NCBI GenBank assembly: GCA_036013055.1
Contig: DASCQM010000001.1
Span: forward strand, 39,015 to 103,014
Direction: 5' to 3'
DNA from: Dehalococcoidia bacterium
GTDB taxonomy: Bacteria; Chloroflexota; Dehalococcoidia; UBA2979
DNA: 64,000 nucleotides
Numbering within the stretch: the first letter of the stretch is position 1; every line of letters starts with the position of its first letter. The notes under the pieces are model-generated. The model saw only the letters and a program-made list of their open reading frames with translations, made no database searches and had not been told where the DNA came from. A program made the position numbers and the translations under genes. Below, piece by piece: positions 2,007 through 63,965 of this stretch.

Positions 2007-3115
2007 GCCTCTGCTCCCAGTTCTTGCGCGACCTCGGCCAGCGCTTCAATCACTCGATCGGTGTCCTCCGCCGTGCCGACGGAGATGCGGATATGGCCGC
2101 GCAGGCGGTCGCTGTCGAAGTAGCGAATGATCACACCACGGCTGCGCAATGCCTCGCGCACCGTCGCGCCATCCGAGCGCAGCAGTCGGCAGAGCAGAAA
2201 GTTCGTGTCGGACGGCCACGGCTCGATCCAACCGGTCGCCTGCAGCGCCTCGAGCAGCCGCTCGCGCTCGGCCGTGATCGTGCACGCGCGCTCGTCGAGC
2301 TCTTCGATGTCCTGCAACGACGCCAGCGCAGCGACCTCCGCCGCGACGTTGAGGCTGTACGGCTGTTTCACGGCCATCGTCGCCAACGCCAGCGCCTCTG
2401 GCATTACCGCGTAGCCGATGCGCATGCCAGCCAGGCCGCCCCACTTGCTGAAGGTGCGAAGCACGACGAGCGGGGCACCCGCCGCCGCCAGCGGCGCCAC
2501 GGATTCCTCCGCTGAGAACTCGATGTACGCCTCATCGATCACGATCAGGGCGCCGGTCTCCAGTAGCTCCTCGATCAACTCGCGAGATGCCGCGTTGCCC
2601 GTCGGATTGTTCGGCGAGGGTAGGAAGACCGCTTTCGCGTCGCGCGCGGCAGCGAGCAGCGACTCGCGGTCCAGCTCCCAGTCCTCGCGGCGCGGCACGT
2701 CGACGACCTCCGCGCCGTACTGCTGGGCGTCGAACGAGTACATGCCGAAGGTCGGTGACGAGATCACGATGCGTTCGCCGGCCTCGATGCAGCAGCGAAA
2801 GACCGCCTCGATCATCTCGTCGGAACCCGCGCCGGCGACGATCGTCGACGCTGGTACGCCGAGCCAACCGGCGAGGGCCGCGCGCAGTTCGCGCTGTTCG
2901 GCGTCCGGGTAGCGGTGGGCGGCGTAGTCGCCTGCCAGCGCCGCGCGCGCCTTCGTCGAAGGGCCGTACGGGTTCTCGTTGGCGTCGAGACGCACGAGGT
3001 CCGAGACCGCAAGGCCGTATTGCGCGGCGATCTGCTCTGGCGCGTCCAGCGTCGCGTAGTCGTCGTACGAGAGCAGCGCCGGGCGCAGCATCTTGGCAGG
3101 TTCGAATGTGGCCAT
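2003..3115 (-). CDS. hisC: Histidinol-phosphate aminotransferase
   Basis: LDANENPYG, SPNNPTG, DEAYIEF and LRTFSKWGGLAGMRIGY motifs. ATG at 3115 overlaps the hisD stop. Confidence 0.95.
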   Translation of the reverse strand: MATFEPAKMLRPALLSYDDYATLDAPEQIAAQYGLAVSDLVRLDANENPYGPSTKARAALAGDYAAHRYPDAEQRELRAALAGWLGVPASTIVAGAGSDEMIEAVFRCCIEAGERIVISSPTFGMYSFDAQQYGAEVVDVPRREDWELDRESLLAAARDAKAVFLPSPNNPTGNAASRELIEELLETGALIVIDEAYIEFSAEESVAPLAAAGAPLVVLRTFSKWGGLAGMRIGYAVMPEALALATMAVKQPYSLNVAAEVAALASLQDIEELDERACTITAERERLLEALQATGWIEPWPSDTNFLLCRLLRSDGATVREALRSRGVIIRYFDSDRLRGHIRISVGTAEDTDRVIEALAEVAQELGAEA

Positions 3116-12403: not shown

Positions 12404-12417
12404 TCGCGGCAGTAGTA

Positions 12418-12781
12418 GTGCCAGGGGGCCTGTAAGCCGAATTCTGTATCTCTCCCGAAGGAGAGACGACGGCCATCCATCTAGGACGACAGTTGCCTGC
12501 CGCCTCCAGCGACCTACCCGGGAGCGAGGCGGACCACCCCATACTCCCCTATTTGGTCTTGCTCCGAGTGGGGTTTGCCCGGCCGCCTCGTCTCCGAGAC
12601 GCCGGTGCGCTCTTACCGCACCATTTCACCCTTACCCCCGAGGGGGCGGTTTGTTTCTGTGGCACTTTCCGTCGGCTTACGCCGCCCGGCAGTTAACCGG
12701 CACCCTTGTCCGTTGGAGTTCGGACTTTCCTCCCGCGCCCCCGCAAGCGAGGACACCGGCGGCCGTCCGGCCCCCTGGCAC
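12418..12781 (-). ncRNA. rnpB: RNase P RNA (type A)
   Basis: Minus strand has GAGGAAAGTCCGAACTCC near the 5' end and ACAGAATTCGGCTTA near the 3' end. P1 helix is GTGCCAGGGGGCC / GGCCCCCTGGCAC. Confidence 0.97.
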
Positions 12782-24171: not shown

Positions 24172-24234
24172 TCCAGCACCATCGTGGATGCCGGCCCTGG
24201 CGGGACGCGGGCATCTACTAGAGGAGTTGAGCTG

Positions 24235-26709
24235 ATGGCTCGAACAAGCACCCGCCGCAGTCGAGGTCAGACCGCCAGCAAGCGCGCGTCGAAGCCTGTC
24301 CCGGACATCACGACGGTCGGCCGTTTCTTCTTCCGCCCGGAAGTCGTCGGGACGGCACTTGTCGTCCTCGCCGCCGCATGGGTACCTACCCTGCTGCCGC
24401 TCGCCGGAGTACTCGACGACGCGCGCGACGCGATCGTGCGATCGCTCGGACTGCATGCTTTCACGCTCACGCTCGTGATCACGTTCGCCGGCATCGTCCT
24501 GGCGTTGCGACGTGGCGAGTGGCTCAACCAACATCGACGTCACGTGCTCGGCGTGCTGGTGCTGCTGGTCTTCGCCTCGGGGCTGCTCGGCCGCTGGTAC
24601 CCACAGGCGCAGGTCGGCTCCGTCGATCTGATGACGCACTCCGCAGGTGGCGACGGCGGGAAGTTCCTCACGTCGGCACCCTTGAGCGTGCTCGGCTGGC
24701 TGATGTTGCTGCCGGTCGGCTTTGCGCTGCTCTGGCCGCGCACGGCCGCGCGGATCCTGCGCGCGACGCCCGGCGTCGTTGGTCGCGGGCTCGCCACGTC
24801 CTGGCATGCGTTCTGGCGGCTCGGCCTGCATCGAGCGGCCGGCAACGCGATCGCAGCGCCGTTCCGTAGCTTCGCTCGCGCCCGACGGCTGGCCGCCGAT
24901 GCCCCCTTGCCCGATCCATCGTCCGACCAGCAGTCCGACTTCCGCCCCCTCGCCGGCGACCCCGAGCCCTCGCTCGCCGAAGCGGTGCCCGCGACGGCCA
25001 CGGCGATCGCCGACGAGGTCGACGATGAAGCCGACTTCGACGATCCGTTCGCGCCCGAACCTGAAGAGGACGAAGAAGAGAACGCGACGCAGATCCCGAT
25101 GGACATGGAGACCGCCGCCGAGGGCTGGCGACACGCTAGCGACGGCTGGCAGCTCCCGCCGATCGATATCCTGGAAGAGGGCTCTGGCGCATCGTCCGCC
25201 GCGCTCGACAGCGACCGCCGCGCCCGCGCTATCGAGTCTACGCTTGCGTCGTTCGGCGTCGACGCGAAGGTGACCCAGATCAACGAGGGCCACGCCGTCA
25301 CGCAGTTCGGCATCGAGCCCGGCTGGGACGTCCGCACCCGCATGATCATCGAGCGTGACGCCAGCGGGAAGGCGATCCTCGACGACGAGGGGAAGCAGCA
25401 GCACAAGGAGGTCGAGGTCTCGCGGACACGGGTGCGCGTGAACCGCATCACCGCGCTCCAGAACGACCTCGCGCTGGCGCTCGCCGCCCCCTCGCTGCGC
25501 ATCGAAGCGCCGGTGCCGGGAAAGCAGATGCTTGGCATCGAGGTGCCGAACATCACGCAGACCACGGTGACACTACGCAGCGTGCTTGAGTCGAAGGCGT
25601 ACAAGAAGACGTCGGCGAAGGCCGCGCTGCCGATCCCGCTTGGCACGGGCGTCTCCGGCGAGTCGGTCGTTGCCGACCTCGGCAGCATGCCGCACTTGCT
25701 GATCGCCGGTGCCACCGGCTCGGGCAAGTCAGTCTGCCTGAACACGATCATTAGCGGCCTGCTGATGAACTACTCACCGGAGCAGTTGCGCTTCGTGATG
25801 ATCGACCCGAAGCGCGTCGAGCTGACGCCGTTCGCGCCGATCCCGCACCTCGCGTTCTCGGAGATCGTTGTCGACCTCGACAAGATCCGCGGTGCCTTCC
25901 AGGCGGTGATCAACGAGATGGAGTCGCGGTACCGACGCTTCGCCCAGGCCGGCGTGCGCGACATCAAACGCTTCAACGAGAAGATGGGCGGCAAGCCGCT
26001 CCCCTACTGGGTCGTGGTCGTCGACGAGCTCGCCGACATCATGATCGCGAACCCGTATCAGGTGGAGCGTCAAATCGTGCGCCTTGCGCAGCTCGCGCGG
26101 GCGACCGGCATCCACCTCGTGCTCGCAACGCAACGCCCGTCGGTCGACGTCGTGACGGGCCTGATCAAGGCGAATTTCCCAACGCGCATCGCGTTCGCCG
26201 TGGCCTCGCAGGTCGACTCGCGAACCGTGCTCGACCAGGGCGGCGCCGAGAAGCTACTGGGCAAGGGCGACATGCTCTTCCTCGCGACCGACTCGCAGAA
26301 GCCACGCCGGTTGCAGGGTGTCTATGTGTCGGACGACGAGACCGACGCGATCGTCAACTTCTGGACGAGCGATCGCTTCGAGGACCTCTCGCCGGAGAAG
26401 CACGACGAGCTGCTCCAGGAAGGCGAGCGACAAGTCGAGGAGATGGAAGAACCGTCCGAGGACGATGTGCCCGACGACCCGATGATGCAGAAGGCGCTCG
26501 CACTCGCGCGTGAGACCAACCGCCTCTCGACGTCGATGCTGCAACGCAAGCTGCGCATCGGATACCCGCGGGCGGCACGCATCATGGACGACCTCGAAGA
26601 GCGAGGGATGATCGGCCCTGCCGAGTCCGGCGGCTCATCGCGACAGGTGCTGATGGACGCCGAACCGGCCGCACCGGCTGGCGTCGGCTGGGACGACGAC
26701 TCGGACTAG
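24235..26709 (+). CDS. ftsK: DNA translocase FtsK/SpoIIIE
   Basis: N-terminal TM helices, PHLLIAGATGSGKS, IDPKRVEL, VDELAD, ATQRPS and gamma-domain LQRKLRIGYPRAAR. GAGGAG SD before ATG 24235. Confidence 0.96.
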   Translation: MARTSTRRSRGQTASKRASKPVPDITTVGRFFFRPEVVGTALVVLAAAWVPTLLPLAGVLDDARDAIVRSLGLHAFTLTLVITFAGIVLALRRGEWLNQHRRHVLGVLVLLVFASGLLGRWYPQAQVGSVDLMTHSAGGDGGKFLTSAPLSVLGWLMLLPVGFALLWPRTAARILRATPGVVGRGLATSWHAFWRLGLHRAAGNAIAAPFRSFARARRLAADAPLPDPSSDQQSDFRPLAGDPEPSLAEAVPATATAIADEVDDEADFDDPFAPEPEEDEEENATQIPMDMETAAEGWRHASDGWQLPPIDILEEGSGASSAALDSDRRARAIESTLASFGVDAKVTQINEGHAVTQFGIEPGWDVRTRMIIERDASGKAILDDEGKQQHKEVEVSRTRVRVNRITALQNDLALALAAPSLRIEAPVPGKQMLGIEVPNITQTTVTLRSVLESKAYKKTSAKAALPIPLGTGVSGESVVADLGSMPHLLIAGATGSGKSVCLNTIISGLLMNYSPEQLRFVMIDPKRVELTPFAPIPHLAFSEIVVDLDKIRGAFQAVINEMESRYRRFAQAGVRDIKRFNEKMGGKPLPYWVVVVDELADIMIANPYQVERQIVRLAQLARATGIHLVLATQRPSVDVVTGLIKANFPTRIAFAVASQVDSRTVLDQGGAEKLLGKGDMLFLATDSQKPRRLQGVYVSDDETDAIVNFWTSDRFEDLSPEKHDELLQEGERQVEEMEEPSEDDVPDDPMMQKALALARETNRLSTSMLQRKLRIGYPRAARIMDDLEERGMIGPAESGGSSRQVLMDAEPAAPAGVGWDDDSD

Positions 26710-26820
26710 ACCGGCCGTCGATTCCACGTCTCGCGCCAACGCCGACGATAGTGTCTGACGGTCCGTGGACGCGGGACGTTTGGGGCTCCCGTCCGCTCAG
26801 GCAGTGGCTACCATGTAGGT

Positions 26821-27070
26821 GTTCCAGCCAGAGAGGTTGCCGCCGGGAGGAGAGGTCCGCCGTTGAAGATAGATAGCAACCGTTTGCCTCGCCTTCGACC
26901 AAACCGAACGACGGGCTGAACTCACCCCTGACAGGAGCACCTGAACAACTCCGGATTGCCCTATCGGCTCCAACGCCGAACCAAGAGATCGCCAACGTCA
27001 GGGAGCCGAGGCAAGCGACTCACTCGAATACCGCACTCACCGAGAGAGACCCCCGCGGCGGGGATCTTTC
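26821..27070 (+). ncRNA. Candidate structured RNA (about 250 nt), possibly with an 18-aa sORF
   Basis: TACCAT -10-like box at 26809-26814; nested helices 26835-40/26876-81, 26881-91/27007-17 and 26926-32/26997-27003; terminator at 27042-27070. Strand inferred from these signals. Confidence 0.55.
27042..27070. terminator. Intrinsic terminator, likely bidirectional (candidate ncRNA / uvrB)
   Basis: GC hairpin GAGAGACCCCCG-CGG-CGGGGATCTTTC, running into a pyrimidine-rich TTTCTTCGTTCTCTT tail. Confidence 0.6.
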
Positions 27071-27122
27071 TTCGTTCTCTTCTCGCTGTGGCGCTTGATG
27101 GAGCCGCCGCTGGGACGAGCGA

Positions 27123-29264
<2,142 letters not shown>

Positions 29265-55207: not shown

Positions 55208-55284
55208 TGGTGCCGCATAGGGGATTCGAACCCCTGATCTCCGCCTTGAGAGGGCGGTGTCCTGGGCCACTAGACGAATGCGGC
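55208..55284 (-). tRNA. tRNA-Glu (anticodon CTC)
   Basis: Acceptor stem GCCGCAT/ATGCGGC with ACCA end; anticodon arm CCGCC-CTCTCAA-GGCGG; GTTCGAATC T-loop. Confidence 0.96.
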
Positions 55285-57785: not shown

Positions 57786-57861
57786 TGGTGCCCCCACGGG
57801 GATTCGAACCCCGGTTTCCACCTTGAAAGGGTGGCGTCCTAGTCCCCTGGACGATGGGGGC
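57786..57861 (-). tRNA. tRNA-Glu (anticodon TTC)
   Basis: Acceptor stem GCCCCCA/TGGGGGC with ACCA end; anticodon arm CCACC-CTTTCAA-GGTGG. Confidence 0.96.
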
Positions 57862-63891: not shown

Positions 63892-63965
63892 TCGGGACTC
63901 GTCTAATGGTAGGACAACGGATTCTGGTTCCGTCAATTGGGGTTCGAATCCCTGGTCCCGAGCCA
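63892..63965 (+). tRNA. tRNA-Gln (anticodon CTG)
   Basis: Acceptor stem TCGGGAC/GTCCCGA with GCCA end; anticodon arm ACGGA-TTCTGGT-TCCGT. Confidence 0.96.

Follow-up and report, generated by a model that had tools for sequence, protein, structure and literature searches.

The DNA analysed here, called the window throughout, is a stretch of 64,000 nucleotides from a Dehalococcoidia bacterium and corresponds to positions 39015-103014 of contig C1 in a source assembly of 2.32 Mb (21 contigs, completeness 93.7%, contamination 7.7%); the sequencing runs that contain window DNA are labelled as marine or seawater metagenomes. The convergent genes ftsK and uvrB, both confirmed by their Pfam domains, enclose a gap of 413 nt at 26710-27122, which an initial annotation had put at about 410 bp and had interpreted as the site of a structured, non-coding RNA acting in trans. 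We find that this gap holds a self-contained small gene, hereafter the unit, whose transcript of about 250 nt would extend from approximately 26822 to 27072. Its parts line up as a -10-like box, a leader of 40 nt, a Shine-Dalgarno (SD) sequence, a TTG start codon, an open reading frame (ORF) of 18 codons, a folded tail of about 150 nt and a terminator (Table 1). As the annotation had likewise noted, no co-directional gene lies 3' of the unit, uvrB being convergent.

Table 1. Features of the unit and its flanking genes, with the positions given in the window
Feature	Position	Strand	Remarks
-10-like box TACCAT	26809-26814	+	box at matching place in relatives
GGTTGC, motif of the 5' untranslated region	26835-26840	+	kept in family alignments
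SD-like GGGAGGAGAGG	26845-26855	+	purine-rich GGAGG columns at -14 to -10, kept across 45 units
Short ORF MKIDSNRLPRLRPNRTTG	26863-26919	+	TTG start, 18 codons, TGA stop 26917-26919
Long-range helix, 5' strand CGTTTGCCTCG	26881-26891	+	within ORF codons 7-10; inverted repeat, in minimum free energy fold
Long-range helix, 3' strand CGAGGCAAGCG	27007-27017	+	complementary to 26881-26891, one G-U
Enclosed central domain	26892-27006	+	CCCUGAC/GUCAGGG and UCGGC/GCCGA helices, A/C-rich linkers, four CYGAAC copies
Intrinsic terminator	27043-27075		G+C hairpin 27051-27063, T-rich tail; arms 27043-27056/27058-27071
GGTTGC/GCAACC	26835-40/26876-81	+	complementary; ensemble pair probability 0.00-0.20
11-bp helix	26881-91/27007-17	+	ensemble pair probability 0.55-0.96
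CCCTGAC/GTCAGGG	26926-32/26997-27003	+	ensemble pair probability 0.87-0.96
GGAG/CTCC	26934-37/26949-52	+	complementary; ensemble pair probability 0.06-0.07
TCGGC/GCCGA	26964-68/26975-79	+	ensemble pair probability 0.87-0.97
ftsK	24184-26709	+	FtsK alpha, FtsK_SpoIIIE and gamma domains by Pfam; stop TAG 26707-26709
Hairpin-like stretch after ftsK stop	26757-26800	+	read from sequence
uvrB	27123-29264	-	UvrB domains by Pfam

The TACCAT box named in the initial annotation lies where relatives carry a box of the (c/g)ATACT type and, behind it, GTAC (consensus GGATACTGnAnGTA), and transcription would likely start at about 26821-26823; a sigma-70 consensus scan did not find a full promoter at the unit. 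The proposed 3' terminator was also recovered by a terminator scan, and relatives form strong CCCCGG-type hairpins at the matching place. With a promoter-like box and a terminator of its own, both kept in relatives, the unit appears to be discrete, in line with the initial annotation. The terminator stem (27043-27071) lies between AGAGAGA and TCTTTCT, with the uvrB stop 52 nt past its arm, so that two-way termination is possible, and the terminator probably serves both the unit and the convergent uvrB. The hairpin-like stretch behind the ftsK stop is a possible ftsK terminator that would set this gene apart from the unit.

BLASTN with the 413-nt gap returned only the gap itself in its own genome and nothing in 40 relatives, even within the genus; homology was found only via synteny and profiles. 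Of 29 loci from relatives, 19 retain the ftsK> <uvrB order, the two genes being 29-1112 nt apart, and an iterated nhmmer profile recovered a common core from 12 of 20 gaps, one of them the window's own. Within this core, the (c/g)ATACT-like box and GTAC are succeeded by GGTTGC, purine-rich GGAGG and CCGCC, then one base and finally TTG or ATG. A covariance/sequence model of the conserved core block, termed R1, was applied at two thresholds to one set of 99 genomes of the order and gave matches in 53 genomes and 17 of 21 genera at E<=0.01, and in 38 genomes and 11 of 21 genera at E<=0.001. Most of these matches immediately precede the uvrB 3' end, which the unit also faces head-on at four loci from another genus. 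For the comparisons below we used 45 distinct units, that is 51 distinct profile matches minus six that lie inside long ORFs (L150, L154, L155, L157, L158 and L161); locus L143 has no start anchor and was left out of all counts.

A class-wide search outside the order produced five weak matches (E 1e-4 to 1e-3), which we judged unconvincing; they are devoid of GGTTGC and the -10 context, and one of them opens an ORF of 297 residues. The core was present at 2 of 80 uvrB loci of named Chloroflexota genomes and at 1 of 80 metagenome loci, and a metagenome scan yielded no close relative of the window, the best uvrB identity being 74%. Judged by these searches, the family is restricted to one order of marine Dehalococcoidia. 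Among papers listed for small RNAs of SAR202 and for non-coding RNAs and small ORFs of Chloroflexi we found no description of it, and the comparative evidence argues for a previously undescribed family of real, conserved and independent small genes, of which the window copy is a divergent member.

Two observations concern the limits of this distribution. At loci L006 and L012, both from one genus, ftsK and uvrB are spaced by 29-36 nt and neither genome yielded a copy of the unit at any other place, so that it is dispensable or replaced in this genus. Locus L008 of another genus (418-nt gap) shows GGAGG, CCGCCC, TTG and a 19-codon ORF by eye while R1 remains silent, and the family is therefore probably wider than the R1 counts suggest.

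The only part conserved family-wide is the 5' module, comprising the promoter-like box, the SD sequence, the TTG or ATG start and the first ~10 codons, and its substitutions are of a coding type, which speaks against the purely non-coding RNA that had been proposed. Across the 45 units, the start column holds TTG 43 times and ATG twice with TG being invariant, and G-rich SD columns precede it by 10-14 nt. In each of codons 3 to 9, column entropy peaks at the third position, the second usually being the least variable. Among pairs of units that are 60-99% identical over codons 2-12, synonymous or conservative changes make up 52% of the codon differences in the ORF frame versus 28% and 30% in the other frames; stops within the first 8 codons occur in none of the units in the ORF frame versus 4 and 11 units in the others. 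The length of the ORF is constant within genera, with 17 codons for the MKQDESPASRSSRVxRR type and 18 codons for the MDxEDPAAVSPSALVRTA type, and same-genus orthologs carry ORFs of 13 and 18 codons in the same frame. The window unit and its same-genus ortholog L003 share codons that diverge at the third position (CCT/CCC, CGA/CGG, CCA/CCG).

As a background for these starts, we used 272 candidate long-ORF starts of the genome with GGAGG 4-12 nt upstream. TTG opens only 23 of these 272 and is thus a minority start in this genome; its near-fixation in the family points to an added constraint. The encoded peptides also begin unusually, at least three of residues 2-7 being aspartate, glutamate or proline (D/E/P) in 28 of the 45 units as compared to 8% of the background starts.

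The genome carries a second copy of the unit on contig C2 at ~2330-2530 (+) (locus L258), which is more canonical than the window copy. It consists of a GATACT box, an SD sequence, a TTG start, a 19-codon ORF (MQEDDSPASYGPTLIRSAA) with four D/E/P among residues 2-7, and a terminator, and converges on an alpha/beta-hydrolase gene. A phage-type integrase split in two ORFs (286-798 and 844-1335) is located about 1 kb away near the contig end, and this copy may therefore adjoin a mobile-element remnant.

In the window copy, the five nested helices listed by the initial annotation are all complementary, with the ensemble favouring the 11-bp, CCCTGAC/GTCAGGG and TCGGC/GCCGA helices and disfavouring GGTTGC/GCAACC and GGAG/CTCC. 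The minimum free energy (MFE) fold of 26822-27072 is multi-branched, and in it CAAC pairs instead with the GUUG that contains the start codon. Its energy corresponds to a z-score of -2.60 (-1.35 for 26800-27085), while the minus strand gives -0.07. All four copies of CYGAAC that had been reported are present, starting at 26904, 26916, 26941 and 26976, and the TGA stop of the ORF falls within the second of them. Only 0.34 copies are expected and four were reached in 1 of 5000 dinucleotide shuffles, for a motif that was picked post hoc, and no copy exists in two same-genus orthologs or in the paralog. The count of the commonest 5-mer is ordinary (reached in 446 of 1000 shuffles), CAAC is enriched only in the window unit and L003, and across the family no 4-mer emerged as a shared linker motif, CAAC being no exception. 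It is worth mentioning that GCGCCAACGCCGA, located just past the ftsK stop at 26733-26745, recurs as GCTCCAACGCCGA at 26967-26979 in the central hairpin of the unit, and that CGCCAACG is present once more at 26990-26997.

In most units, a strong hairpin follows about 200-250 nt past the start, so that the RNA would be about four times as long as the ORF. Covariation, through which the annotation had proposed to check its structure, was seen in the tail of a nine-sequence subgroup from the best-sampled genus. Here, RNAalifold predicts 58 consensus pairs in 10 helices of branched layout, with 93% of cells paired versus 33-44% when the partners are slid, and 12 pairs changed on both sides versus 1-6 when slid; on none of three measures (paired cells, double changes, covariation score) did any of 500 shuffles reach the observed figure. 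In this fold the SD/start region pairs with ORF codons 6-13 through near-invariant helices, which are hence untouched by the covariation test, and the next helix links the end of the ORF to the stretch just before the terminator, with two covarying pairs. Pairing of this kind recurs across the family: the MFE folds of 30 of 39 units join at least 5 nt of the region from +15 to +60 to partners that lie 80 nt or farther downstream (mean 14.7 nt versus 3.6 in shuffles). The predicted 11-bp helix of the window fits this recurrent ORF-tail pattern, and L003 shows the same layout of a 5' hairpin, a long-range helix from the ORF, enclosed hairpins and a terminator (z = -3.05). Without their terminators, the bodies reach a mean z-score of -0.98, with 33 of 39 below 0 and 5 of 39 below -2.

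Evidence on expression comes from a metatranscriptome contig of 157 nt (depth 3.7) that covers 26836-26992 with a T>G exchange at 26942, which destroys the third CYGAAC copy. In the part compared, no sequence of this run fell on the flanking ftsK or uvrB. This contig is weakly suggestive of a discrete, relatively abundant RNA, as contigs show neither ends nor strand. Three DNA runs contained only short pieces over the unit, without variants, the uncovered parts being uninformative.

Regarding known RNA families, the initial annotation could not match the gap to the four it considered, and our Rfam/Infernal scan of the window at gathering score agrees in giving no match there. Candidates listed for 26650-27180 at E<=10 were a sodF sRNA (15.3 bits) and HOXB13-AS1_2 (10.5 bits), both at chance level. 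The unit is not a transfer-messenger RNA (tmRNA) either, as Infernal places this RNA at 641-990 of contig C1 (163.6 bits); an aragorn -m run missed it, and the aragorn result is unreliable here. Elsewhere, the window holds a bacterial class A RNase P RNA at 12417-12778 (-) (306 bits) and three ordinary tRNA genes at 55211-55284 (-), 57789-57861 (-) and 63892-63962 (+).

The two trans-acting roles that had been suggested, a divergent 6S-like RNA and a protein sponge, were not borne out. 6S RNA forms an elongated, largely double-stranded rod that opens into a large central bubble, and we rejected this shape for the unit, since both the window MFE fold and the nine-sequence consensus are branched. 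The 6S model (RF00013) matched neither the window at gathering score, nor 26650-27180 at E<=10, nor the own genome at E<=1, nor the relatives G005, G007, G008, G076 and G095 (1-2 contigs each) at E<=0.1, and the same search found 6S RNA in 5 of 14 control genomes. For an Ms1-like RNA, no Rfam family matched, the presence of an Ms1 model in Rfam being unconfirmed. Concerning a sponge, a csrA gene is encoded in the genome (contig C12, 86682-86831 (+), 63 bits), but the site GGA is not enriched in the unit (6 versus a shuffle mean of 7.05; ANGGA 1 versus 1.71), CYGAAC is not conserved and Hfq was not found in the window's genome. CsrA is patchy in the order (41 of 99 genomes; 12 of 12 in one genus, 0 of 19 in another), and its distribution differs from that of the unit: genera g3 (4/4), g15 (5/5) and g19 (1/1) carry the unit without detectable CsrA in any of these 10 genomes, while g13 carries CsrA in 6/6 and the unit in 0/6, many genomes of the order being incomplete.

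Taken together, we propose that the unit is a translation-coupled, ORF-bearing small RNA of a new family, a reading to which we give an even chance. Since the ORF contains one strand of the tail-closing helix, the 5' one, a translating ribosome would have to open the tail, and a closed tail together with pairing of the start codon would limit translation. The RNA could thereby exist in two states, translated and open or untranslated and closed, with the tail as the part that may act on other molecules. A far more specific version, which we regard as distinctly unlikely, is a ribosome-gated riboregulator in which the very short ORF, opening with drop-off-prone D/E/P residues in most members, would sense the translation status, and passage or abortion of the ribosome would open the tail-locking helix or leave it closed and so switch a trans-acting domain or permit antisense read-through into uvrB.

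Several observations weigh against the translation-coupled small RNA. The window ORF does not share the acidic N-terminus of the family, with a single D/E/P among residues 2-7, and the peptides are poorly conserved past about 12 residues, with ORFs of anything between 8 and 109 codons. Codons 6-9 do not vary in the best-sampled genus, third positions included (twelve consecutive bases), so that a constraint at the RNA level overlaps the ORF there. The units are moreover kin, and the pair counts and entropies given above are not independent and overstate the support; translation of the ORF is presumed from this comparison. The body of the window unit without its terminator hairpin folds no better than shuffles (z = -0.53), and the fold energy thus exceeds shuffles only with the terminator; in the body-only MFE fold, the unit has no long-range pairs, the probability of the 11-bp helix being 0.55. 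RNAalifold predicted no pairs for the 5' module of 16 units and thus gives no consensus structure for it. The tail profile of one genus matched no other genus, and since the tails share no detectable sequence, a common tail function across genera is unproven. Finally, the RNA contig may come from DNA in the library.

A rival reading is a plain micropeptide gene, whose transcript only makes a peptide of 17-18 residues and whose tail is an untranslated region and terminator without a function of its own. Such a gene would explain the coding-type signals of the start column, the periodicity and the frame-specific substitutions, the length of 17-18 codons kept within several genera, the dissimilarity of tails between genera and the mean MFE z-score of only -0.98 across 39 units. 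It would leave unexplained why the C-terminal halves of the peptides are unconserved while the overlapping RNA hairpins covary, why a tail three times the ORF length is kept in nearly all units and paired to the ORF over a long range in 30 of 39, and why ORFs of only 8-9 codons exist, and we consider it rather unlikely. The opposite view, a purely non-coding small RNA acting in trans, in which the SD- and TTG-like letters are structural or binding elements and which titrates a protein or binds RNA polymerase, appears unlikely as well: it conflicts with the third-position periodicity, with the excess of conservative substitutions in one frame and with the alternation of TTG and ATG at a single column. 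The missing downstream gene, the terminator of its own and the structured tail in one genus are in line with it; so is the 6S role, which is unfilled as 6S RNA went undetected in the own genome and five relatives, but the 6S model did not match at E<=10 and the fold is branched. CsrA being encoded and GGAGG standing where hairpin-loop GGA sites are expected would suit a sponge, against which stand the ordinary GGA content, the absence of CYGAAC from orthologs and the mismatched distributions of CsrA and the unit in g3, g15, g19 and g13.

The short ORF, the alternative pairings and the terminator also resemble leader-peptide attenuators, and an orphan of this type could let ORF translation decide on the terminator, with read-through running antisense into the uvrB 3' end and lowering uvrB expression. 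The position against uvrB is kept across genera, which may merely reflect kept synteny, and the window offers alternative pairings that use letters of the terminator, yet the terminators are long perfect G+C hairpins, and the read-through is hypothetical. No same-strand gene lies directly downstream at the window, at the four loci of the other genus or at the C2 paralog, where an unrelated hydrolase gene takes the place of uvrB. The D/E/P-rich starts would recall MgtL, which is described to sense via such residues (bioRxiv 10.1101/2021.02.02.429294), but the window ORF is not rich in them, and an attenuator is in our view very doubtful. Equally, the window copy might be a decaying remnant whose helices and repeats arose by chance in G+C-rich DNA, as its peptide has no acidic start, the L003 ORF of the same genus has 13 codons and a different sequence, the body fold is no better than shuffles, BLASTN matches nothing to the gap even within the genus and the paralog on contig C2 is the more canonical copy. 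A remnant would hardly be expected to retain box, SD sequence, TTG, open frame, long-range helix and terminator all intact, to differ from L003 by synonymous third positions in shared codons and to be covered by an RNA contig, which makes decay most improbable.

To our knowledge, hardly any small RNAs or micropeptides are known from Chloroflexota, and the marine Dehalococcoidia concerned are uncultured and without genetics. The family offers a concrete, conserved candidate for study, with a clear start site, a tail that shows covariation within one genus and an ORF that is recurrently linked to the fold. It further illustrates that a seemingly structured non-coding gap may conceal a conserved tiny ORF, which matters for the annotation of such gaps. 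Should the ORF gate the fold, the unit would be a stand-alone example of a mechanism known mainly from operon leaders, and the ribosome-gated version, if true, would represent an orphan leader-peptide sensor turned into a stand-alone regulator.

Among known systems, the unit shares with 6S RNA that it is small, abundant-looking and apparently stand-alone, in an order without detectable 6S RNA; it differs in its conserved start site and ORF, its branched fold, the missing model match and its absence or non-detection in many genera of the order. With the CsrB/RsmZ sponges it has in common repeated short motifs in unpaired linkers, a GGAGG in a short hairpin region and a genome encoding CsrA, whereas GGA is not enriched, the unconserved CYGAAC is not a CsrA site and the unit's distribution differs from that of CsrA. 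MgtL is a leader ORF whose N-terminal D/E/P-rich, ribosome-destabilising motif leads to ribosome drop-off (bioRxiv 10.1101/2021.02.02.429294), and most ORFs of the family similarly start D/E/P-rich within a long structured RNA. MgtL precedes mgtA, however, whereas no gene follows the unit, and only one of the six residues after the start of the window ORF is D/E/P. Likewise, rnTrpL/peTrpL is described (PMC12612679) as an attenuator-derived small RNA with a 14-codon ORF, of which both RNA and peptide are functional. The unit resembles it in a very short ORF followed by alternative hairpins and a terminator, but unlike rnTrpL, which stands before trp genes and contains Trp codons, it has no co-directional gene and no single-amino-acid codon run was seen in it. 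Because of the single D/E/P residue of the window ORF and the missing downstream gene, the unit belongs to neither leader class. SgrS/SgrT (PMC12612679) is a dual-function small RNA of ~230-250 nt with an SgrT ORF of 43 codons, and would share with the unit a stand-alone transcript of this size, a short 5' ORF with a further part behind it and an intrinsic terminator; the translated short ORF of such RNAs is suggested for the unit by comparative evidence. There is no sequence relation to SgrS, the ORF is shorter (18 codons) and is itself part of the tail-closing helix, and no Hfq was found in the genome. In layout, the unit comes closest to small RNAs of the dual-function kind, among them SgrS/SgrT and rnTrpL/peTrpL.

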